64,000 nucleotides of DNA from a virus. Both the position numbers and the translations under genes were made by a program. Below the pieces are notes generated by a model. It was not told the origin of the DNA. It made no database searches and saw only the letters and a list, made by a program, of their open reading frames with translations. Positions 6,513 to 19,004 of this stretch are shown here, in pieces; the stretch's first letter is position 1, and every line of letters starts with the position of its first letter. Where the stretch lies: IMG/VR virus record IMGVR_UViG_3300022872_000001, positions 32,001-96,000 of that record. The stretch is one strand, 5' to 3'.

Positions 6513-7031
6513 CTAATATTCCAACATCATAAATTTGTAATCATTGACACTCGCGGCTTCCACGAATGCCGCATTCAATGCTGACAAACTATCTGGATTG
6601 ATTCCATGCAAGCGTAGAATCATAATCACTTGTGGCACCATTGCATGCCAGCGCAGTTGCACGCCAGATTGCTTATCGTCAGAGATAAAGGTATAAACAT
6701 CCTCCAACCGCCCACGTACCTCACCTTCGATCTGTGTCACCTGAGTAAGGTTAAAACGCTGCTTGGTTGTTTTCAGGTTAGCACGTAATAGATACGTTAC
6801 CAGATCGTTTGTATCGCGCAGGTAAGGGGAACGGTAATATATTCCATTCGATTCCTTTATGACACGCAAACGATTCGGTCTTTTGTAGAATTCCACCGTG
6901 ACCGTTTTCGTCATGTGCAGCACTGCGGGATTCACACCATCCGAACGTTTCGTATAGGCGACGATGAATCCCAGACGTTCCACAATGGTTCGAATATCTC
7001 CCGTCTTATATTTCAGATTGTTGATTATCAT
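6513..7031 (-). CDS. hypothetical protein, 172 aa
   Basis: ORF coupled to the upstream gene (TAATG overlap). Confidence 0.75.
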   Translation of the reverse strand: MIINNLKYKTGDIRTIVERLGFIVAYTKRSDGVNPAVLHMTKTVTVEFYKRPNRLRVIKESNGIYYRSPYLRDTNDLVTYLLRANLKTTKQRFNLTQVTQIEGEVRGRLEDVYTFISDDKQSGVQLRWHAMVPQVIMILRLHGINPDSLSALNAAFVEAASVNDYKFMMLEY

Positions 7032-7723
7032 TATTTCACCTTACCCTTCTTCACAGCACGCAAACCAATATCCACTTCCTTATTCAAGGTATCGAACTGC
7101 GCGGTGATTATCTCTTCTCCGATTTGTTTTTCCACAAAAAGGAAAACGCCAAAACCATCTACGTTCAATTCAGCATCCCGCCAAACCTCTTGATCGTAAT
7201 TCAGAAGAGACTTGGCGATCTGATCTACGTAACCTTTCATGAACAAATGATGAACTAGTTCCTTACGGTTCGCGCAATGTTTGAAAGCATTTTGAATCCA
7301 AGTTATTTCCCGTTGGATTTCCTTATCGTACTTAGGAATACGTGTAACTTCGGTCACAACCTCCTGCTCCGGTTCAGCCATTGCGTAGGCTGGCCATTCT
7401 ACAGGGATAGATATTCCGTAGGGAGCGAAGCAGATCATGGCTTGATGACTAGAGGATTGGGGGCGTACCTCGATCAATCCTAAGCCGTCAGTGGCAAGCA
7501 GGTAACCGTAACGAAACTCCTTGGAGGAAGCGTCCTGACCCTTCTGATATTGTAAGCCAAGCGCGGTAATAAATTTATTCACTTGCCAGTTTTCAATCTG
7601 GACGAATATAACCTGTTGTTTCTTTTCATACAGCATGCGTGAACCGAGAATACCATGCTGGATAAGGTACGCTTGGAGATCGGTTAGCAGTTGCTGATCT
7701 TCCGGGGATATTGCGGCTTCCAT
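7031..7723 (-). CDS. hypothetical protein, 230 aa
   Basis: ORF with AAGGAG SD. Confidence 0.8.
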   Translation of the reverse strand: MEAAISPEDQQLLTDLQAYLIQHGILGSRMLYEKKQQVIFVQIENWQVNKFITALGLQYQKGQDASSKEFRYGYLLATDGLGLIEVRPQSSSHQAMICFAPYGISIPVEWPAYAMAEPEQEVVTEVTRIPKYDKEIQREITWIQNAFKHCANRKELVHHLFMKGYVDQIAKSLLNYDQEVWRDAELNVDGFGVFLFVEKQIGEEIITAQFDTLNKEVDIGLRAVKKGKVK

Positions 7724-7763
7724 GAAATACTCCTTCTTAAGGATAATAAAGAACTATGGATGA

Positions 7764-8471
7764 CTAACGCCGACGATTCGCGTGGTACTCTTCGGTACCT
7801 ATAATTGCCTGCACCCAGTCAGGTAAGGTGCGCTCGAATTCCTCCGATAAGCGTTCTACGATACGGAAATGTTCCGCAGTTATTGCATTTGTACCACCCG
7901 GTGGACCTAATTCCTCTTGGGCTTTATCGAAAGCCCAATCTTGGGGTATGAATGCCCAATAAGAATCTCTACCATTATACCAATGATCAGATGCAAAAGG
8001 GTGGAGACGGTTGTAAGATTGTACCAAACCTTCACGAACATCCTTATGAAAGGAACGCAGCTCTAAGGGACGCGTCTCTCCTTCGACCTGAAGGACAGTA
8101 ACTGGGTCATTATTTCCTAAATCATTTCCGTAAGCCAGATCGGAAGGTACTGATCCGTGTAACCAGATCATATTGGCCCTTTCAGGCTGAGAAGGCGTAC
8201 CATCCGCGTTCTCCCATTGCCAAGTATCTACGGTAATAATCAAACCGGAATCACGTCGAGCAAAAACCAAAAAGCGGGTCTCATTGTGATGACTACGCCG
8301 AAGGAATTTGAATTCTCCTACTTGCTCGAAATGCAGATGATCGACAATCACCGCAATCTGTTCATCAGCCGTCTGACTATTATTGGTTTCACATTTACCG
8401 GAAGTTTGGTAAATGTCTTCATTTTCTTCAAAACCATCATAATGTTCAGAATCTGAAAAGTGGTTTGTCAT
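7764..8471 (-). CDS. hypothetical protein, 235 aa
   Basis: ORF with AAGGAG SD. Confidence 0.8.
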   Translation of the reverse strand: MTNHFSDSEHYDGFEENEDIYQTSGKCETNNSQTADEQIAVIVDHLHFEQVGEFKFLRRSHHNETRFLVFARRDSGLIITVDTWQWENADGTPSQPERANMIWLHGSVPSDLAYGNDLGNNDPVTVLQVEGETRPLELRSFHKDVREGLVQSYNRLHPFASDHWYNGRDSYWAFIPQDWAFDKAQEELGPPGGTNAITAEHFRIVERLSEEFERTLPDWVQAIIGTEEYHANRRR

Positions 8472-8504
8472 TTTGAATTACTCCTTGAAAGGTGGGATTA
8501 CGGA

Positions 8505-8828
8505 TTAATAACGATAAGTGGTTGTGTAGAGATAAATGCGGCTGTAGCTGGGACTGTATTTGGACTTGTTCGGGTATGTGTGAATGGAAATACTGCCGTT
8601 AGGGATTTTAGGGTGCATCAAGAATGTGATTTTATGGTTAACGTCCGCATTAGCCTTTCCGACAACTTCCCAACCTGCTTTTAGGAGACGTGATTTAAAA
8701 ACACCTGCTGAAAAGAGGGGAATAATCTCAATACTATTATTGCTGGTAATTCGGGCCTTAACGGGATCAAGGTTCAGGGAAGACATGAATTGATCCACGC
8801 GATTTTGTACGTTAGTTTGCTTAGCCAT
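8505..8828 (-). CDS. hypothetical protein, 107 aa
   Basis: ORF with AAGGAG SD directly after an early promoter. Confidence 0.75.
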   Translation of the reverse strand: MAKQTNVQNRVDQFMSSLNLDPVKARITSNNSIEIIPLFSAGVFKSRLLKAGWEVVGKANADVNHKITFLMHPKIPNGSISIHTYPNKSKYSPSYSRIYLYTTTYRY

Positions 8829-8856
8829 GATTAACTCCTTGAAAGGAGGTTTGTGT

Positions 8857-8883
8857 ACGCCTTAATTATAACATAAAAACGCG
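8857..8883 (-). promoter_or_regulatory. sigma70-type extended -10 early promoter (copy 2)
   Basis: Minus strand CGCGTTTTTATGTTATAATTAAGGCGT with an AT-rich upstream region. Confidence 0.7.
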
Positions 8884-8918
8884 TTTAAAACCCAATTTTT
8901 CGAATATTTTATCGAAAA

Positions 8919-8952
8919 AATAACCCCTAAATACAATGACTTAGGGGTTATT
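8919..8952. terminator. bidirectional-looking intrinsic terminator
   Basis: AATAACCCCTAA-N10-TTAGGGGTTATT perfect 12-bp stem flanked by A and T tracts. Confidence 0.75.
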
Positions 8953-8985
8953 TTGTGCATTTTTACAACATTTTTGAACTACGGG

Positions 8986-9708
8986 TTAATTACGCGTTTT
9001 GGCCTTAGGCGCTCCGAGTTTTTGCAGTGTGGAAGTAACGATAGTTTGAACACGCGGACTATTCGTCAGTTTTGCCTTCATGTAGTTCAATTCAGAACGG
9101 GTGTAGGAAGCTTTGTGGTTACGAACAGCGTTGGCAGCTTCAGCGTCACCCAACAAAGCGGTACGTTCGATCCACATATCAAACTGATCCGTAATACCCT
9201 TCGGTAAATCCCCGCCGCCGTCACCTTCAGTAGTCATGGTAACCAGACTGACAGGAATTTCCTGCTTCTCATCGCTATCGTCAGTATCACCAACCCCACC
9301 AACCACCTTAACGTCGGCAGTGATAGCACGCGAACCTGCCGCTTCATCAACATGGCGTTCTTCGGCTTCCAAACGGTCACGTTCGATCTGAGCATCATCT
9401 TGGGAAAGAATGCGTTCGGCATCTCGAACCGAAATGATGACAATCAGTTTCTTTTGAACCAATGCGCGGAATTCCGAAGATGCTAGCAACTGCTGGCGAG
9501 TTACTACGTCGGTGATATTTTGCGGCAACCACGTTTGGCGAATGCGCAAAGGATCTTTGTCCGCACCGTTACGTTTTGGAATGGAGAGATAGATATCGCC
9601 GTTCGCCTTAACAGCCGATTCGGTAGAACTATTCAAAACATAAATCGGCTTCGGAGAATTGCGTCCTTCTTTTTCCAATTCGGAAATGGTCATGAGTTGT
9701 GCAGCCAT
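8986..9708 (-). CDS. hypothetical protein (start re-called to MAAQLMT)
   Basis: AAGGAACAAATA-ATG at 9708. Confidence 0.8.
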   Translation of the reverse strand: MAAQLMTISELEKEGRNSPKPIYVLNSSTESAVKANGDIYLSIPKRNGADKDPLRIRQTWLPQNITDVVTRQQLLASSEFRALVQKKLIVIISVRDAERILSQDDAQIERDRLEAEERHVDEAAGSRAITADVKVVGGVGDTDDSDEKQEIPVSLVTMTTEGDGGGDLPKGITDQFDMWIERTALLGDAEAANAVRNHKASYTRSELNYMKAKLTNSPRVQTIVTSTLQKLGAPKAKTRN

Positions 9709-9736
9709 TATTTGTTCCTTGTAGTTAAGATTTAAA

Positions 9737-10201
9737 TTAGTGCAACTCACGGCGAACCGCTTCGAGCAATTCGCTTTTTAGAGAAGCCACCGTCTCTTCA
9801 TTTGGAACATGTTCACCCACAAGAGTGGCGAGTGACTGTATGGTTAGGTTTGTATCGGTACGGTACTTACAGTAACCGGTTGATCTATGTTTCCAGAAAC
9901 AAGTGCCTTTCGGCAGTGGACATTGCGCGGTGATCAATTGTTTATTGATGACACCGCAGAATGTTCCCTGCACGTCCGCATTAGATAGCAGTAGGGCATC
10001 TGTTCTCTGTAGATCGATTATTGGGATTACACGAGGAAGGCGTGTATCTTTTTTCTTTTTTGTTTCTACAGGTTGTTTGATCTTTTCGATTCTAACAACC
10101 GTCGGGTTTATCACTTTATTTACTGCAACTGGTTTAAGTGCAACTGGTTTAAGTGCAACTGGTTTAAGTGCAACTGGCGTTTTATGCTTTTTCGGTAACA
10201 C
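9737..10201 (-). CDS. hypothetical protein with PVALK repeats and a Cys-rich C-terminus
   Basis: GGAGG-GTG start; CPLPKGTCFWKHRSTGYCKY. Confidence 0.75.
   Translation of the reverse strand: MLPKKHKTPVALKPVALKPVALKPVAVNKVINPTVVRIEKIKQPVETKKKKDTRLPRVIPIIDLQRTDALLLSNADVQGTFCGVINKQLITAQCPLPKGTCFWKHRSTGYCKYRTDTNLTIQSLATLVGEHVPNEETVASLKSELLEAVRRELH
10124..10177. repeat. 15-bp tandem repeat x3.6
   Basis: TGCAACTGGTTTAAG x3 + TGCAACTGG, encoding PVALK on the minus strand. Confidence 0.95.
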
Positions 10202-11213
10202 GGTGTCCTCCCAGTAACTGTTCCCTCAAAACCTTGGCTCGATCCACAATGCGGGATTCTATGTTCTGCACCGATAACCATTTGTTGAAATGTTCCTCCG
10301 TCCGTATAACCAATTCCTCACCTGAGGTTAAATCTTCCGTAAGGATGGTTTGCAACTCGGCCTTAGTCTTAAAACCTTTAACGCTAACTATATTAGGCAT
10401 TTGGCATTCGGGCGACTCCGGATCAATATCTGAACCTTCCTCGATAATCAGCTTCACCAAATGCTTCGTATCGGTTGGTAGTTTCTTTAAATCCTTTTTT
10501 GCATGCACAATGCAGGTATACAACTTGTACTTAGGATCAAAAGGTATCGAATCGATCGAGTAGTCATCTCGATCCTTGAAGTTAATGTGGTGAAAGAATT
10601 TAGGAAGGGATTCACCGAAGTAGGTTTGATACAGAGTTCCTGAATAATAGGAATTACGGATTCTGTGGTTGGTATGCAGGTGACCGACTGCCACAACCGC
10701 CTTGGAATTGGAATGTTCCTCGTTATCGAAAACTCGTCCAGAATCCATTTTAGATCCTTGGACTTCTACGTGAGCAATATTCAAAAGCTTTTTTGAGAAA
10801 TCCTGGGAAGGCCAGGGATGAAAATGAATCTTGGTTCCATCGATCTTGATTACCTCAGGTTCGGTAATTATGTGAACGTGTGGAAAAGGATAACGCTGGA
10901 TGATCTCCAACGAATGACCTTGGCTAGAATCCTCGGCAAACTTATCGTGGTTACCTAGAATGATCCAGAATTTAAATCTCTTATTCCTATCTAGGAACTC
11001 TAGTAAGGCTAATTGCGCGTCGTAACTCATCCGAGGATTTTCGCATATATCTCCTTTGAAGAAGACATTGGAAATGCCATTCTTCTTAGCGTAACTAAGA
11101 ACCCTTTGGCACTCTGACATAACATACAAGTCAGGTTCCTCTATGTAGTTCGAAAGTCCTCCCTTACCTGAATCATCTGTGAGATGAAGATCTCCTATGC
11201 TAACTGCGTGCAT
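10182..11213 (-). CDS. SbcD/Mre11-like metallophosphoesterase exonuclease subunit
   Basis: IGDLH, FKGDICE, ILGNHD, AHVEV, VGHLH calcineurin-like motifs. Confidence 0.9.
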   Translation of the reverse strand: MHAVSIGDLHLTDDSGKGGLSNYIEEPDLYVMSECQRVLSYAKKNGISNVFFKGDICENPRMSYDAQLALLEFLDRNKRFKFWIILGNHDKFAEDSSQGHSLEIIQRYPFPHVHIITEPEVIKIDGTKIHFHPWPSQDFSKKLLNIAHVEVQGSKMDSGRVFDNEEHSNSKAVVAVGHLHTNHRIRNSYYSGTLYQTYFGESLPKFFHHINFKDRDDYSIDSIPFDPKYKLYTCIVHAKKDLKKLPTDTKHLVKLIIEEGSDIDPESPECQMPNIVSVKGFKTKAELQTILTEDLTSGEELVIRTEEHFNKWLSVQNIESRIVDRAKVLREQLLGGHRVTEKA

Positions 11214-11364
11214 TTATAATCCTTAAGAAGCCTAATTGGTATTTAATCATTCATACTTTATTTACTAGCTAAGGATTTATAGGTACCTAGGATAGCGAAG
11301 GATTTTTGAAGACTTGAGTGCCTGTCTCAATGGTTGGAGTTAGATTCCTTTCCTTCCGACAGAC

Positions 11365-11403
11365 ATGGAATCCTAATATGGAATCCTAATATGGAATCCT
11401 AAT
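11365..11403. repeat. 13-bp perfect tandem repeat x3 (iteron-like)
   Basis: ATGGAATCCTAAT x3 in a 620-bp divergent intergenic region. Confidence 0.95.
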
Positions 11404-11860
11404 TCAAATATCAATCCTACTGATTTTATATTTATAAAAGATTGGTTCAGCTCGAAGTGGAACGGAGAGATGTGGATCGTAAAATAGAGAGTGAGCGGAG
11501 CGATACTCTCTTTAGGAAGTTTAGGCAAACAGGCAACCCCAACCTAGGTAGCTGGTCGAGTTTATTTATCCTTAAGGAGTTTGGTTAATCCTAATCCATG
11601 GGATTGGAACCGTACTTAGTTAATACCATCTTCCGCTTCGCTACAGATGGTTAAAAGGACTCCGTCCTACCTAATAATTTTGAAAATCATGATAATTGAA
11701 AAGCTAATAATCCCTTTAAAAACCTAATCAAAACTGCGTTTTTAGGGAAATGTAATACGTCAACGCAGTTATCTATTATATGGACACTTATTACATAAAT
11801 TCATTCAAGTAAATAACGTACATAAATTCGATTTGCATGTATCTCTTCAGGAAGAAAATC

Positions 11861-14005
11861 ATGGAAGAAAAAGACCCTCACCGTAAACATCGCTCATATA
11901 TCAAACTTGTTGATTCTTTCCCTGGTATGGGAAAGACCGATGGTGCCATTATTACTATGAAAGAATGTGTAGAATCAAAGAAAGGTATTATTCTCTATGC
12001 AGGTCCAACTTGCAAACTTCTTAAGGAAGTTGAGAAGCGTTTATGTTCTGCGTTAGGTATAGATAAACATCCTTCGGTCATTCCCATTCATAGTAGTGCT
12101 ATGTACGGTTCCGGAGATCCTATGCATGAACGTGTGATTCATCTTATAGATGGCACTATAAAGGCTCGTTCACATTTGAAACTCGTGGAAGAAGGTTCTG
12201 TGGTTCTTATTACGCATAAGACATTTATGCAGTTACCTCGCTACCTAAAGAATAAAGAAAAAGTTACCGTTATTTTTGATGAAGCTTACAAGTGCGTTTT
12301 CGATCCAGTTGAGGTCAAACTTAAGGGTAAGGAAGTAAAAATCTTCGAAAGACATTTAGGAATACCTCGTGGTAATTCCAATGACTATTTGAAACTCGAA
12401 AAGATCTCGTCCTTGAATAAGATTCGAAAAGATTTGGCGCACCTTGAAACAAAAAAATCAGGTAAGCAGTTATTTGAGATTTTAGATTCGATACGTAAGG
12501 AGTCTTCGGAAGTGTATGTAAAAATTACAGGAGAATCCTCATCTCGTTTTGAATTTCAGGAAGTAAAAATTCCATCGACTATGTTTGATGGATGGGATTG
12601 CGTTTATTTGATGAGTGCATTTTTGAAGACCACTCAGCTTTGGGCATTACTAACACGTGGATATTTCAAGCTTGATGGGATTGTGTATAAACAAAAGATG
12701 GATAATTACGGCGATTGGGAAGTGCAGGAAAGTCGAAAGAAGCTCACACTTGATTCTCGAATGCTTTATGTGATTATGAATGACGTTACTGCTGACTTCA
12801 TTCCAAATTATGAGAAACGTCTGGAACAATTTCGTAAACGTTATGAGTCGGCAACGATCCTTGCGCTTACGGAAGGAACTATGCTATCTCGTAATCAATT
12901 GAATTCTGTACTAGTACCACAAGATACTTACGATGAGAAACAAGAAGAACTGCGTACCTTGATCAATAGTATGCGCGATAAGAAAGGTAGAGTTCTTGAT
13001 GGCAAACATCTACTACGTTTAACCCGTTCTGAATTATTCGAGTTTGCTTTCGCACCCGATAATCATCATACTATAACCAAACCAGTCCACAAAATTCTTG
13101 AGTGGTTTAACTCCTTGGATATAATCGCTCGTGATCCCTATAAATGGTACCTGAAGCATGCTGTCAATATGGCTATGCGTTGGATGGAGAAGCGCAAGTG
13201 TTTACATCTAAAACAGAAAATACCAATAGGTAAACGCTTTCATATCAATCTTGTTCCACAGAAGCCTCTTGTATTATTGAATGTGGCGGAACAAGATCGT
13301 GCAATGGCTAATAGTAAAATCATGGATCAGATTCAACTTCTACCATTTGAATGTGCAGGTATAAATGAGTTTCGAGATCATCGCGTAACCATCTTCTTGG
13401 CTGCGCTGAATGCCAGACCTTCACACCAGAATTTCTATTCCAGTATCTTACCTTGGTATAATCCGAAGCAAGACTATGCAGTAGCTTCTGCGGTGCAGGC
13501 AGTAACTCGTGGTATCTTACGCAATCATAAATCAAAGAAATCTGCATTGATTATTGTATCGGATATTGAAATGGCAATGATGTTGAAAGACCGTCTATTG
13601 GGTGCACCAACAATTGTCAAAGGTGCAGATTATGATATTCCTAATGTACGTGCTTTGGAATTTTCAGTACGCTCAATAAATGCTATTGATCGTCAAAAAT
13701 TCATTACTATCGATCCTATTAAGAAAGCGCAAAGAGCTAAGACTCAAACCAAGACAGGTAAGAAACGCTATGCCATATCTGAAGCCGACGTGCGTAAGAA
13801 TAGTCCGTACTTCGGCGAGATGAATAAAAATAATGTGCGTATGACGCGTATGAAAAAAGCTGCGGAAGTATCCATTCATACACAAGATGACAAAGCCGAA
13901 GTAATTGCACTTGAAAAACTAGTTAAATCTCTACGTCAACAACATTCCGACTGGGCTAAGCAGTATCGTAAAGAATTAAAAGCCAAACAATTCAACAGTA
14001 AATAA
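11861..14005 (+). CDS. SF2-like helicase / possible origin-binding protein
   Basis: Walker A DSFPGMGKT, Walker B VIFDEA, C-terminal QAVTRGILR motif VI-like; start re-called to MEEKDP. Confidence 0.7.
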   Translation: MEEKDPHRKHRSYIKLVDSFPGMGKTDGAIITMKECVESKKGIILYAGPTCKLLKEVEKRLCSALGIDKHPSVIPIHSSAMYGSGDPMHERVIHLIDGTIKARSHLKLVEEGSVVLITHKTFMQLPRYLKNKEKVTVIFDEAYKCVFDPVEVKLKGKEVKIFERHLGIPRGNSNDYLKLEKISSLNKIRKDLAHLETKKSGKQLFEILDSIRKESSEVYVKITGESSSRFEFQEVKIPSTMFDGWDCVYLMSAFLKTTQLWALLTRGYFKLDGIVYKQKMDNYGDWEVQESRKKLTLDSRMLYVIMNDVTADFIPNYEKRLEQFRKRYESATILALTEGTMLSRNQLNSVLVPQDTYDEKQEELRTLINSMRDKKGRVLDGKHLLRLTRSELFEFAFAPDNHHTITKPVHKILEWFNSLDIIARDPYKWYLKHAVNMAMRWMEKRKCLHLKQKIPIGKRFHINLVPQKPLVLLNVAEQDRAMANSKIMDQIQLLPFECAGINEFRDHRVTIFLAALNARPSHQNFYSSILPWYNPKQDYAVASAVQAVTRGILRNHKSKKSALIIVSDIEMAMMLKDRLLGAPTIVKGADYDIPNVRALEFSVRSINAIDRQKFITIDPIKKAQRAKTQTKTGKKRYAISEADVRKNSPYFGEMNKNNVRMTRMKKAAEVSIHTQDDKAEVIALEKLVKSLRQQHSDWAKQYRKELKAKQFNSK

Positions 14006-14029
14006 AAGATAGCAAACAAAGGAATTAAA

Positions 14030-14260
14030 ATGACTCAAACCAACAAAGATTATCTCGCATCCAAAGCTCCGGAATGGAATTATCCTCCCTTGGATCCTCC
14101 TGCACCTAAGGGTACCAAACTGAATTTGCTCACTATAGGAGGTGTTGCGGTTCTCGGTAACTGGCAGGACGACCAAGGTTACGTTGCATGGGCTCCCTTG
14201 ATCAAACGGAATCCTATCAAGGAACAACTGCTAAAGGACATGCAGAATGCAAATGCATGA
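14030..14260 (+). CDS. hypothetical protein, 76 aa
   Basis: AAAGGAA SD; AGTAAATA at 13997. Confidence 0.75.
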   Translation: MTQTNKDYLASKAPEWNYPPLDPPAPKGTKLNLLTIGGVAVLGNWQDDQGYVAWAPLIKRNPIKEQLLKDMQNANA

Positions 14261-14621
14261 TACAGAGATCCAACGTGTGCGCGATTTGCCATTCAATACC
14301 AAGCACGATGATATGGTATTTGTTATTCTGGTTCATGCTTTGATTCGTAATAGCCAAATTATTTTGGTAAAGTTGAAGGGCGTTGAACGGGAAGAATTGG
14401 CTATCAAGGTAGGTAGTGAATTCTATAACCACTATACGTTGCACGGCGCAGAATACCTACCGCAGTTGAGGTACGGGAAGAGCAAGTCATATGGTCATTT
14501 AGTGGAGGCTTCACGCGTGATAGAGGTTGAATGGTTACAATCGCGTCTCGACTTCTTCGGTGCGCAGCAGGTGATCAAACTCTTCCATCAATTGAAGGAT
14601 GAAAAGGAGACAGCGTGCTAA
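14247..14621 (+). CDS. hypothetical protein, 124 aa
   Basis: ORF in an operon-like run. Confidence 0.7.
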   Translation: MQMHDTEIQRVRDLPFNTKHDDMVFVILVHALIRNSQIILVKLKGVEREELAIKVGSEFYNHYTLHGAEYLPQLRYGKSKSYGHLVEASRVIEVEWLQSRLDFFGAQQVIKLFHQLKDEKETAC

Positions 14622-15061
14622 GCATGATAACCCCTATATTCTTTATAGAACCTCCGAGCATAGAGAATTCTTTTGACAAGCTACGCCGAGATGTTTCGGA
14701 ACGTGGAAGAGATATCTTTAATAAAGAATTCATAATCCACAATTTTGAACAGTGTCTTAATGAGATTGTGAGCGATCTTATCTTTTTCCAAACAAAAGAT
14801 ACAAGACATTATGAACTCCTGGTTGCTTCAAAAATTCAGGAGCTGATTAAGTATTATGTGTACCATGAAATAATCCTTAAGGGATTCCTTGAGGTTCCCG
14901 TTGTACCTGCTGACATAACCATTGGTACAGTTAAAAGGGATTGGGATTCTGGCAATTTAGTTGTCCCTGTCGTCGCCTCCGGTACGGTAGATACTAATCA
15001 TACCACAGGTTCACCTAAGTCCAAGAAACGCAAAGCCGGAATGAAAACGTCAAAAGAATAA
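14615..15061 (+). CDS. hypothetical protein, 148 aa
   Basis: AAGGAG-GTG start. Confidence 0.7.
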   Translation: MLSMITPIFFIEPPSIENSFDKLRRDVSERGRDIFNKEFIIHNFEQCLNEIVSDLIFFQTKDTRHYELLVASKIQELIKYYVYHEIILKGFLEVPVVPADITIGTVKRDWDSGNLVVPVVASGTVDTNHTTGSPKSKKRKAGMKTSKE

Positions 15062-15113
15062 GTAGCTAGTAAATACGGCATGTAAGATACATTCAACTGA
15101 AAAGGGAAATACT

Positions 15114-15563
15114 ATGACAACAGGAAGCATGCAGGAACTGCCAGAGAATGAGTTGCAGGATTTAGGAACAAACTTAATTGATGCTTTATTAGGCAAAGCA
15201 TCCCGTGAATCTCTTGATGTCATGGCTGAACTTCAGGAATCAATCATAGACGCCATCGATTCCCTTTCTACCTCTCTTGGCATTAGCTATGAAGACTCAG
15301 ATGACGAGGACGACGAAGAAGATGACACGGAAGATGGTGAAGACGGTGCTGGTACGGATATCGATGCTCTTGAAACCGAAGAGGAAGTGGAAGTTACCAC
15401 TACCGAAGATGTCGATCATCTGACAAGTAATCAATTGCGCAAGCTGTCTATTAGCATCGCAAATGAATTATTCGTCCGTGCTTCGCAGGCGGATGCAGAT
15501 GATTGTGATGAAGAGGACGAAACCGAGGATTCGGAAGCTGATGAAGAGGATTCGCATTTCTAA
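15114..15563 (+). CDS. highly acidic hypothetical protein
   Basis: D/E-rich; AGTAAATA at 15068. Confidence 0.8.
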   Translation: MTTGSMQELPENELQDLGTNLIDALLGKASRESLDVMAELQESIIDAIDSLSTSLGISYEDSDDEDDEEDDTEDGEDGAGTDIDALETEEEVEVTTTEDVDHLTSNQLRKLSISIANELFVRASQADADDCDEEDETEDSEADEEDSHF

Positions 15564-15584
15564 TTTGTTGCAGTAAATAAACAG

Positions 15585-16120
15585 TGAACAACACGAATGG
15601 AGGATCTTATGTTTTCCGGCATTCGTGCGATGTTGCAAGATTGGTACTACGTAATCTGTAATACAGATTACCAAGTCTTCCTTTATAAGGTTGGGTGTGG
15701 GAACCTAGTTGCTGCAACCTACGGCAGGTCAGCAACATACACTATTAGCCGACGCGCTAGCCACAGATTTTGGTATCTGTAAGGCTAGCGTGATCGTTAT
15801 ATAGAGCAGTACCCACACCGCACATCCTGCGACACGCGCACAGCCACAACTTTACAATTCAAGCATCAAACTAAAAGGCTCGTGCCTATTAGGACGTCCT
15901 AACTCTTACACAGTTATCTTGTTGATCGAAAGCTTCAAGGTTTCTATGTAAGACGGAATGTCCATTTATGCGTAGCGTGAGAGAACGCCGCCGGAAGCAT
16001 AATGCAGACAACTAGTAGTTGATATCGAGCGTAGTTATTTGGGTCGCTCCCGCTACATCCCGGTTTCATCCTATGCGTCGATTCACTGCTTCCGAAGCCG
16101 TTTTTAAATAGATTCAAATG
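15585..16120 (+). ncRNA. large structured non-coding RNA candidate of unrecognised class
   Basis: Own AGTAAATA (15572) and terminator (16121); at least 8 stems, a predicted pseudoknot (15694-15701 with 15812-15819) and a long-range helix (15609-15620 with 15990-16000). Confidence 0.65.
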
Positions 16121-16156
16121 AAGGGCGATTCAGAAATGGGTCGCCCTTTTCCTTTT
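16121..16156 (+). terminator. intrinsic terminator
   Basis: AAGGGCGATT-N8-GGTCGCCCTT followed by TTCCTTTT. Confidence 0.8.
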
Positions 16157-16221
16157 GTTCAGTAGTAAATAAAGTGTGCATCATTTAAATCTAAGCTAAC
16201 TAATTCTCGAAAGGTACTATC

Positions 16222-16704
16222 ATGGCAACTAAGAAATCTGCAACTAAGGCTCTATCCGCAACACGCACTACCTACGCTGTTGATCTGAAGAGTAAGAAAA
16301 CAGTACCTGCAAAAACATTCGTCACTGGCCGCCTGGAACAACCGAAGCAAGCCTCCCAAGAACCTTTACCTGAACCAGAAACGGCAGTAGACGCTGGTAC
16401 TTTGCTTGGTACCTATATTCCTCCAGGTGACGGGGACTCGTCTACTGTATCTACCCGTTCGGTAATTCTCTCCCGCATTTGCGGCATGGAACAGACGATT
16501 TTACACAATCGTGGGTTACTCGGTGACCTTATCGCTACCCTCAGTCCTATTCTGGGGGAAGACGCCGTGGTACCTCCTGCGCCTACTTCATGCTTTGAGG
16601 CAAATGTTCACTCTCATCTGCGTCTTCGTATTGAGAATATCATCGATACTCTGGAAGATCAAACACGCGTTATTGTTTCCCTAATTACGGCTGTGGAGTT
16701 GTAA
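16222..16704 (+). CDS. hypothetical protein, 160 aa
   Basis: AAAGG SD; AGTAAATA at 16164. Confidence 0.75.
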   Translation: MATKKSATKALSATRTTYAVDLKSKKTVPAKTFVTGRLEQPKQASQEPLPEPETAVDAGTLLGTYIPPGDGDSSTVSTRSVILSRICGMEQTILHNRGLLGDLIATLSPILGEDAVVPPAPTSCFEANVHSHLRLRIENIIDTLEDQTRVIVSLITAVEL

Positions 16705-16961
16705 TGCGTTGCGATGAAGTGGCTGAGTCCCTCATCGCACTGGCAAACCCTATTGAGGGTTTCCTTGTGACCAGGGATCAAATCGAAAGGCTTCTTGGGA
16801 CTGAACTACACTATGTCCTACAGATCAGTATCAATCAGTCTCTTGATCGCCTTGGTTACATCCTAATTTCTCTTGAGAATATATTCTCCGTCGTTTCCAA
16901 GCAGCACCTCAAGGAAATGCCGTGCGTCACAGACGAATCAATAACCCATCTCCTTTCTTAG
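16704..16961 (+). CDS. hypothetical protein, 85 aa
   Basis: TAATG coupling. Confidence 0.7.
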   Translation: MRCDEVAESLIALANPIEGFLVTRDQIERLLGTELHYVLQISINQSLDRLGYILISLENIFSVVSKQHLKEMPCVTDESITHLLS

Positions 16962-16971
16962 AAAGAAAATT

Positions 16972-17265
16972 ATGGCACTTCCTAAAAGTCTCAAACACCA
17001 TGCGCGGGCGGAATCCGTTCCAAAACTCTCCATTCTCCAGTTACGTTTGGAAGAGCATGATACGGCAATCAGTACGCTACACGATACAGCTAAGCTTCTT
17101 TCGAGTAGGCTTGATCCTGTTATGGAAGCGCCTTCCCCGACCGAGAAAGAATCACTAGACTCGGTATCTCATTCTCTCCTGACCGATACCATTGCCAACA
17201 ACACCAGGTCCCTGGCGTCCCTCAATTCTGTTCTCGAGGATATAATTTCCCGCCTGGTGCTGTAA
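16972..17265 (+). CDS. hypothetical protein, probable paralog of the 16222 C-terminal half
   Basis: Shared pattern LxxxLxP[IV][LM]...S.L...I...LxL. Confidence 0.7.
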   Translation: MALPKSLKHHARAESVPKLSILQLRLEEHDTAISTLHDTAKLLSSRLDPVMEAPSPTEKESLDSVSHSLLTDTIANNTRSLASLNSVLEDIISRLVL

Positions 17266-17282
17266 GTATTTTTAGGAATCGT

Positions 17283-19004
17283 ATGAAAAACCGTTTCAAG
17301 ATTGCGGCGAAACGGCTAATCGTTAATGTGGCGTCGTCTCACGGGATGGCGCCTCTCGACGTTTTGGCTATCCACAAATATGCTAGGACACAGAAATCCT
17401 ACAATCCTGCGTCCGTATTTGGTACATGTCTGTATGCTTACAAGGAGCAGCTATATCCTAAAACGATCAAACGATTCCTAAAAGGCAAAACTTCGGAAGC
17501 TTTGAAAGAAACGCAATACCTCAAAGCCAGAGATAAATTTGTTGATGGTCGTTACGGCTTTGCATTTGATTTTATAAATAATTTTTACGTCAAGCAATTC
17601 ATTGCTTTGTTCAATGACGAAGAGAAAAAGCAGCCTGTTTTCGGTTATACACAGTTGAATACTGCATTGACCAAACCTCAGCAAATTGTACGGGAACAGA
17701 TAAGGGAAAAGTCTCCCACATCTTCCTCTATAATTATTCCTACTTCGAAAGAAGTAGCGGCACTAACAAATAAGCTGCCGTCTCCTGTTATCTTTGATTC
17801 AATAAAATGGACTAAGCAACAGGCTAATGCCCTCAAACTTATCTATGCTTGGTTGCGCGACTCTAATCGAAAACCAATCTTCCGACTCTTCGGATACGCA
17901 GGTGTAGGTAAGACGTTCCTAGCCAAAGCTATTGCGGCTTTCGTTTATAACGAAGCAGGCAAACGTAATGTGCCTAAAGGGGATGTCCTATTCGCGGCTT
18001 ATACAGGCAAGGCTGCGTCGGTAATGCGACGTAATGAATGCGTAGGTGCCTCCACTCTCCACTCTTTATTATACAAACCTATCATCGATCCTGGTACAGG
18101 CAGGTGCACTGGTTTCATGCTTAATGGTGACTCGGTATTGGCACATGCCTCCGTTCTAATCGTAGACGAGGTATCCATGGTCAATGAGGAATTAGGTAAG
18201 GACGCGGAAGCTTTTAATATCCCTATCCTTTGCTTAGGTGATCCTGGTCAGCTTGATCCAATTGAAGGGTACGGATATTTCACCTCTGTGGAGCCGGACG
18301 TAATGCTCACAGATATTCAGCGCCAGGCAAAAGATAATCCCATCATTCACTTAGCAACCCGAGTGCGTGAAGGTAAATCTCTTAAAACTGGCAAGTATGG
18401 ATCCTCAAGAGTCATCGATACCTTATATACGCCAGCCTCCAAGATGGCTAAGTTCGATCAAATCATTGTTGGTCGTAATGATACTCGCAGGTCAATCAAT
18501 CAAACGATGCGCAAGCATTATGGATACTTCAAAGAATCCTCTATGTATCCTGTTGAAGGTGAACGGTTAATCTGTTTGAAAAATAATAAGACCAATGGTT
18601 TATACAATGGCACTATGTGGGTTGCCGGTAAATCGTCCATCCGTAAAGTATTGATTCCTAAATTCAAAGGATCTTATAGCAAGATTACAGGTTCTTTGGA
18701 TGTGTTAGCTTTCAAGGTAACCAGCGAGGACGAATTGACTCCGGAAGGTACACCAGTAATTATCGATACCCAATGCAGTCCTCATATGTTCAATCTTGGT
18801 TTACCTGAACCTGACTTTAGGGAACGTATTAGCTGTGATGAGTTCGCCTACGGTTATGCAGCCACTGTGCATAAGATGCAAGGGTCCCAATGTCGACGGG
18901 TGTTCCTAAAAGATGAAAGTGCCGCCTTTGGACGGAATGCATGGAAACATCTTTATACGGGAATCACGCGAGCTATTGAGGATATTACCATAGCGCTTGC
19001 ATAG
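17283..19004 (+). CDS. RecD/Dda-like SF1B DNA helicase
   Basis: GYAGVGKT, AYTGKAA, STLHSLLY, IVDEVSMV, LGDPGQL, YAATVHKMQGSQ, LYTGITRA. Confidence 0.92.
   Translation: MKNRFKIAAKRLIVNVASSHGMAPLDVLAIHKYARTQKSYNPASVFGTCLYAYKEQLYPKTIKRFLKGKTSEALKETQYLKARDKFVDGRYGFAFDFINNFYVKQFIALFNDEEKKQPVFGYTQLNTALTKPQQIVREQIREKSPTSSSIIIPTSKEVAALTNKLPSPVIFDSIKWTKQQANALKLIYAWLRDSNRKPIFRLFGYAGVGKTFLAKAIAAFVYNEAGKRNVPKGDVLFAAYTGKAASVMRRNECVGASTLHSLLYKPIIDPGTGRCTGFMLNGDSVLAHASVLIVDEVSMVNEELGKDAEAFNIPILCLGDPGQLDPIEGYGYFTSVEPDVMLTDIQRQAKDNPIIHLATRVREGKSLKTGKYGSSRVIDTLYTPASKMAKFDQIIVGRNDTRRSINQTMRKHYGYFKESSMYPVEGERLICLKNNKTNGLYNGTMWVAGKSSIRKVLIPKFKGSYSKITGSLDVLAFKVTSEDELTPEGTPVIIDTQCSPHMFNLGLPEPDFRERISCDEFAYGYAATVHKMQGSQCRRVFLKDESAAFGRNAWKHLYTGITRAIEDITIALA

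Follow-up and report, generated by a model that had tools for sequence, protein, structure and literature searches.

Orphan non-coding RNAs have been described from the jumbo phage PA5oct, where ncRNA001-004, of 236-619 nt, were defined by RNA-seq (Lood et al. 2020, PMC7318152). The cassette described here resembles them in belonging to a jumbo phage, in measuring a few hundred nucleotides and in having no similarity outside its own phage species (PMC7318152). The PA5oct RNAs lack a plausible ORF, whereas the cassette carries a Shine-Dalgarno-led frame of 57 codons whose codon score is of non-coding type. They were also annotated without any known promoter, whereas the cassette, known from sequence alone, has both a promoter motif and a terminator. 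There is no sequence relationship between the two. With the large ornate RNAs ROOL, GOLLD, HEARO, OLE and raiA of phages and bacteria the cassette shares large size, phage association and multi-helix junctions. Families of the ROOL/GOLLD type are, on the other hand, defined by covariation across many genomes, while the cassette was found in a single near-clonal phage population, is strongly structured over only ~245 nt and left the Rfam models unmatched even at E <= 10. The cassette lies outside every described family; the kind to which it belongs, that of the orphan jumbo-phage ncRNA candidates, is already known.

The stretch of DNA analysed (the window, 64,000 nt) comprises bases 32001-96000 of an IMG/VR virus record of 192,170 bp, which has a GC content of 43.6% and a completeness of 82% according to CheckV. 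The phage is a jumbo phage and far kin of the phiRSL1- and BcepSauron-like phages (~24% identity in a 722-aa helicase). The cassette is placed in a block of + strand genes, with the 722-aa helicase gene (11837-14005) to the left and a Dda-like helicase gene (17283-19004) to the right, and a DNA polymerase gene is found downstream. The region between the helicase genes is hypervariable among the relatives and rich in orphan genes, and the proteins immediately neighbouring the cassette gave no family match in Pfam, PHROGs or PADLOC. Positions 15564-16221 (658 nt) constitute the longest stretch without an ORF of at least 70 aa in the whole 192-kb record. Stop-codon recoding was rejected, as the stops belong to more than one type and table 11 already gives a coding share of 92-94% for the genome. 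The gene directly upstream (15114-15563) encodes a 149-aa protein without family match, and has direct DNA repeats at 15506-15554; the C-terminal half of the protein is extremely acidic and repetitive, with runs of Asp and Glu. DNA-mimic and anti-restriction proteins typically have such a composition.

The left boundary of the cassette is a copy of the motif AGTAAATA, of which the genome has 43 copies where 12 would be expected. More than half of these copies (23/43) are intergenic, though intergenic DNA makes up roughly 8% of the genome; the copies match the orientation of the genes and are usually positioned 20-50 nt upstream of a Shine-Dalgarno sequence and ATG. The consensus of the extended motif is (T-rich)TGC-AGTAAATA-A. 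Copies in the window are found for instance at 10115, 11257, 11808, 13997, 15068, 15572, 16164, 19003, 29167, 32032 and 36540, the strand of the motif flips at the divergence point at 11.3-11.8 kb, and the motif is common to relatives (L008:2140-2155 and L032:15391-15405). We suggest that it is a phage-specific promoter, comparable to the T4 late promoters of the TATAAATA type, and by the same likeness transcription of the cassette would start near 15586. An identical 17-nt version of the motif (GCAGTAAATAAACAGTG) precedes an ordinary gene outside the window (G000:C1:22340-22883, minus strand). The product of this gene is ~134 aa long with very Lys/Ala-rich repeats (AKKEK/KAGK) and a histone-H1-like composition, and the gene has a strong terminator at its end; the idea of a second non-coding unit behind the identical promoter was rejected, the gene there being an ordinary one with a lysine-rich product.

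At the other end, the intrinsic terminator of the cassette is the sole strong terminator on the + strand in 14000-18000. The earlier note had claimed a discrete unit from promoter to terminator, and this is borne out by the motif at 15572, which is recurrent, strand-coherent and enriched between genes and probably acts as a promoter, together with the 13-bp terminator stem. No terminator was found between the upstream 149-aa gene and the cassette, so read-through transcripts from the upstream gene would also cover the cassette. This absence, along with the hypervariable and orphan-rich surroundings, would suit an explanation without any dedicated function, in which the cassette is the long 3' untranslated tail of the upstream operon (from the helicase gene through the 149-aa gene), or else an accessory gene that has decayed or was recently acquired, and its hairpins are incidental or merely generic 3' stabilisers. 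We find this explanation improbable, the presence of the cassette's own promoter motif being one argument against it. The features of the cassette are collected in the table.

Table. Predicted features of the cassette and its boundaries, numbered from the first base of the window
Feature	Position	Strand	Details
Phage promoter-like motif TTTGTTGC-AGTAAATAAA	15564..15581	+	motif enrichment, placement
5' hairpin hp0, 8-bp stem CACGAATG/CATTCGTG and inner GGA/TCC	15592..15627	+	in MFE structure; pair probability 0.54
57-codon ORF	15609..15782	+	GGAGG at 15599-15603, 5 nt before ATG; coding status doubtful
hp1, perfect 9-bp hairpin, 3-nt loop	15651..15671	+	pair probability 0.8-1.0
Small hairpin	15680-15690	+	in helix list of the core
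Three-way-junction domain	15694..15819	+	pair probabilities ~1.0
Junction closing helix GGTGTGGG(AAC)/(GTA)CCCACACC	15694-15704 / 15809-15819	+	GGTGTGGG/CCCACACC pair probability 1.0
Junction arm hp3, 7+4 bp (11-bp arm)	15708-15736	+	pair probability ~1.0
Junction long arm, ~26 bp with small bulges	15742-15804	+	includes hp4 (15753-92), probability ~1.0
C-/A-rich, G-poor tract	15812..15875	+	C 25, A 23, G 7, T 9; C/G 3.6
Untranslated 3' part, ordinary to moderate structure	15876..16119	+	includes TCTTACA/TGTAAGA hairpin (15904-15953), probability ~1.0
Intrinsic terminator, 13-bp stem, 4-nt loop and T-run	16120..16159	+	stem to T-run 16120-16149; pair probability ~1.0
Next promoter-like motif TTTGTTCAGT-AGTAAATAAAGTGTG	16153..16178	+	motif copy at 16164; serves downstream 160-aa gene; right boundary

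The whole unit was predicted to fold with a minimum free energy (MFE) of -198.9 kcal/mol, corresponding to z = -6.0 relative to shuffled sequences on the + strand and z = -5.6 on the minus strand. For the 5' core (15586-15830) the z-scores were -6.2 on the + strand and -7.0 on the minus strand, while the 3' part (15831-16119) gave -2.4 and -0.84, respectively. In a GC-corrected scan of the genome in 300-nt segments, 15601-15900 ranked 2 out of 1828 for structure and 15801-16100 ranked 1166 out of 1828. Among 112 random 245-nt segments of the genome the mean z was -0.55 (sd 1.33, minimum -4.17), and the core reached -7.2 with the same script. The most structured 300-nt segment of the genome (G000:C1:140100-140460) holds a perfect ~19-bp hairpin of terminator type between two + strand genes; this segment, starting at genome position 140101 in the scan, was rejected as a related element, the hairpin being unrelated. 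The unit had earlier been described as densely structured over ~550 nt. This description holds for the core and fails for the remaining ~300 nt, with their z of -2.4 and rank of 1166, and since only ~245 nt are exceptional the picture of an ornate 550-nt RNA is not upheld. The boundaries and the core of that observation are real, while its 3' ~300 nt were overstated. It should be noted that the unremarkable structure of this 3' half would fit a cassette of no dedicated function, whereas z-scores of -6 to -7 and five near-perfect helices with a closing helix are unexpected in decaying sequence.

The core contains five near-perfect Watson-Crick helices, among them a three-way junction. All stems listed in the earlier note were recovered at their positions, but not all of them are favoured in the predicted ensemble; the TTAGG/CCTAA stem has a pair probability of 0.01. 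A pseudoknot had been proposed between the loop of an AGGTT/AACCT hairpin and a downstream segment. The hairpin that it requires has a pair probability of 0.0, while GGTGTGGG and CCCACACC pair in a nested manner, and on the predicted fold the supposed pseudoknot is more plausibly the nested helix that closes the three-way junction. An 8-bp closing helix within flanks of 36 nt has a chance probability of p = 0.015, which argues for a junction architecture and not for a row of separate palindromes. Likewise, the long-range helix between the 5' and 3' parts, said to close a domain of ~390 nt, is not favoured in the ensemble (pair probability 0.19). Downstream of the junction, the last 30 nt at the 3' side of the C-/A-rich tract are predicted to be single-stranded, with a mean unpaired probability of 0.92 for 15846-15865.

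Only 2 of the 82 pairs in the core helices are G-U, as opposed to 13.6% in shuffled sequences. As the helices are near-pure Watson-Crick and equally stable on the minus strand, the fold yields no RNA- or strand-specific signature, and the same two properties would suit an element acting at the level of DNA, single- or double-stranded, whose palindromes might bind proteins or form a signal for replication or recombination in this replication-gene arm. The position of the unit between two helicase genes and upstream of a DNA polymerase gene agrees with such a role. Further, the top 6 bp of hp1 form the same ATCTGT/ACAGAT duplex as the top of hp4, and these two palindromes with the common half-site ACAGAT are the sole ones in the 192 kb. 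Their half-sites are, however, opposite in orientation and differ in spacing (6-3-6 versus 6-6-6), which makes a poor fit to one dimeric binder. One-sided bulges and a closing helix between segments 110 nt apart are an architecture of RNA type, iterons and an AT-rich unwinding tract are absent from the unit, and the minimum of the cumulative GC skew and the strand switch are found elsewhere, around 7000-11800. We consequently hold a DNA-level element to be very improbable, the least probable of the explanations weighed here.

The 57-codon ORF bears directly on whether the product of the cassette is an RNA or a protein. It had been dismissed as non-protein-like, and its codon score and odd composition agree with this, but the GGAGG Shine-Dalgarno sequence ahead of it had been overlooked. 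The ATG at 15609 follows the promoter motif at a distance of ~29 nt, a layout usual for the genes of this phage, and the frame is annotated as a gene in public collections. By a rough estimate the combination of GGAGG-N5-ATG, frame and promoter spacing is improbable by chance, of the order of 10^-3. These features form the case for a translationally gated small-protein gene, in which the cassette would give an mRNA for a 57-aa protein with its ribosome-binding site shut by the 5' hairpin until processing, refolding or a bound factor opens it; the long folded RNA would be an apparatus for control and stability. Such a gene would recall the mRNAs of hok-type toxins or phage genes under translational operators.

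The codon log-odds of the ORF, -0.069 per codon, are like those of spurious ORFs (-0.10 ± 0.14) and below those of chunks of real genes (0.20 ± 0.155). The orphan neighbour genes are clearly coding, with scores of 0.19-0.45, and other Shine-Dalgarno-led small ORFs scored 0.19 ± 0.17, although 3 of 18 such ORFs scored as low as the 57-codon ORF, and two small membrane proteins of the phage that look real had low scores as well. The composition of the peptide is atypical, with neither Glu nor Pro, a single Lys and 12% Tyr. Nor is the length of the frame evidence of coding, since this region has many open stretches of 48-64 codons. AlphaFold2 gave a pLDDT of 47 for the peptide, a single-sequence prediction and as such uninformative.

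Homologues of the peptide were sought widely. No true one was present among 5.8 billion clustered proteins, where a word-indexed search returned only the peptide itself, and there was no usable match in the ESM Atlas and none in Pfam, PHROGs or PADLOC. Three phmmer matches among 1.84 billion representative proteins were rejected as tandem-repeat artefacts, being sums of weak matches with 27-44% identity over one repeated unit. In the 3' part (15876-16119) no + strand open frame exceeds 48 codons and no frame gave a convincing family match, and at least 340 nt from the stop codon to the terminator are untranslatable. A match of a minus-strand frame to phrog_22217 (E = 0.0058) was taken as chance because the frame has a codon score of -0.15, no ATG and no Shine-Dalgarno sequence. 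A decayed gene was rejected, as no frame holds a remnant of a known protein family, and this also tells against the version of the no-function explanation in which an accessory gene has decayed.

The structure around the start codon can be read in two ways. Hairpin hp0 encloses both the Shine-Dalgarno sequence and the start codon of the ORF, and the stop codon is inside the long arm of the junction. The initiation region (-25..+25) has a dG of -15.0 kcal/mol and is more stable than that of every Shine-Dalgarno-led gene of the phage (147/147; mean -4.8, sd 2.6, minimum -13.1 kcal/mol). Such extreme occlusion counts against coding and for an RNA gene whose frame stays silent; on the view of a gated gene, however, it suits regulated translation better than absent translation, and some 5'-3' complementarity in the unit would fit the gated gene too. 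The parallel to hok/sok mRNAs is evident in that an ORF of ~50-60 codons lies in a highly folded RNA of several hundred nucleotides with a sequestered ribosome-binding site and a long untranslated 3' part. Unlike the type I toxins, the peptide lacks a hydrophobic stretch of transmembrane type, as read from its sequence, the helix folding the 5' end back on the 3' part is weak (P = 0.19), and no promoter-like site for a hok/sok-type antisense RNA was found on the minus strand within the unit. It seems rather doubtful to us that the frame is normally translated. The gated gene is the strongest competitor to an RNA gene, though we consider it unlikely on balance.

In the search for known families, the earlier failure to place the RNA was confirmed: Rfam gave no match in the whole window at gathering thresholds (4227 families, including ROOL, GOLLD, HEARO, OLE, raiA, tmRNA, RNase P, group I/II introns, 6S, pRNA and ribozymes). 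With Rfam 15 at E <= 10, positions 15400-16300 gave only chance snoRNA- and ctRNA-like matches, outside the element or at its edge. Neither tRNA nor tmRNA was detected in the window by ARAGORN and the Rfam tRNA model, and the two tRNAs of the phage are elsewhere in the genome. Relatives hold tRNA-like genes in comparable gaps, without similarity to the cassette. In one relative contig (L032:15391-15705, Logan SRR26348584) the promoter-like motif GTAGTAAATAAACAATG is followed by a 145-nt match to the Rfam tRNA model (50.4 bits), the length of which implies an insertion of ~74 nt; this tRNA was missed by ARAGORN and is followed by a second T-arm/acceptor-like stretch without Rfam match. A tRNA with undetermined anticodon was seen in another relative (L034:13942-14012).

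The identical ORF is present on seven contigs of at least 5 kb each, and for the two of them that were compared the identity is 100% over 3.6-6.2 kb. Beyond these identical contigs no DNA, protein or covariance-model relative of the cassette was found. A blastn search in 'distant' mode of 50,697 phage records gave no match, BLAST against five whole related records gave nothing similar to the cassette, and exact-pattern scans of IMG/VR and JGI metagenomes returned 0 matches. The 22 loci around relatives of the Dda-like helicase had neither similar DNA nor an equivalent gap, and no similar DNA was present on four contigs that carry relatives of the 722-aa helicase, only genes of 76 aa and 124 aa being common, with contig L035. 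The nearest relatives, whose helicases are 46-50% identical, are without the cassette and have other genes in this arm. A covariance model, R1, built from the core domain of the three-way junction matched only itself in its own genome, so that there is no second copy, and had no match in two whole relatives or the 22 loci. A conservation limited to identical contigs would be expected also of a cassette without dedicated function. An antisense regulator of phage genes was rejected, the complementarity to the rest of the genome being within chance (longest 13 nt), and so was an RNA of retron/DRT type, as a search of the 192-kb record (82% complete) in which the controls matched gave nothing for RVT_1.

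With its own promoter motif and terminator, its place among genes of the same orientation and its absence from the nearest relatives, the cassette has the traits of an autonomous unit of moron type. Classical phage morons encode protein, while here the sole frame is of doubtful status and over 60% of its length the unit cannot be translated. Our preferred explanation, to which we give a probability of about 0.45, is a stand-alone accessory transcription unit of moron type whose product acts mainly as a folded RNA. What the analysis shows is the boundaries as features of the sequence, the exceptional stability of the predicted fold, the weak coding signal and the lack of relatives; that the unit is transcribed, how its RNA folds in the cell and what it might do are inferred.

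Transcription from the promoter at ~15572 to the terminator at 16120-16149 would give an RNA of ~570 nt, the first 240 nt of which would fold into five very stable Watson-Crick helices. The hairpin at the 5' terminus would hide the sole Shine-Dalgarno/AUG, leaving the 57-codon frame silent or nearly so, and would be followed by the perfect 9-bp hairpin and then by the three-way junction with its long arm of ~26 bp. A helix of ~26 bp is of the size class cut by RNase III, and the arm may thus be a substrate in size. In being a quasi-continuous bulged helix of this length in a predicted phage transcript it is like the RNase III hairpins of the T7 R sites and of lambda sib and the N-leader; those are single hairpins between genes, whereas the arm of the cassette belongs to a three-way junction in a separate cassette. 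On the 3' side of the junction would follow the single-stranded C/A-rich tract, a loose 3' fold and the terminator. In this way the folded RNA would display its double-stranded arms, together with a single open C-rich platform, for a partner that is either a protein or another RNA, and it may serve as a scaffold, a decoy or a substrate for processing.

Further, we speculate, as a long shot well beyond the RNA gene as such, that the cassette could be the first representative of a class of large phage RNAs not yet described, very stable and with a three-way junction, a 26-bp arm and an open C-rich platform, acting as a decoy or scaffold during infection; it might for instance sequester a double-strand-specific nuclease of the host or an RNA-sensing defence protein. 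The Shine-Dalgarno-bearing 5' hairpin would then be a structural or ribosome-mimicking feature and not a start of translation.

The two main readings of the cassette are an RNA gene, which we tentatively prefer, and a tightly gated small-protein gene, which we judge the less probable. The restriction of the cassette to one near-clonal population of an uncultured phage limits its value and permits no generalising; its assets are that the boundaries are unusually clean and the predicted fold extreme. Jumbo phages make orphan ncRNAs of obscure role, and each well-delimited case is a handle on that question.
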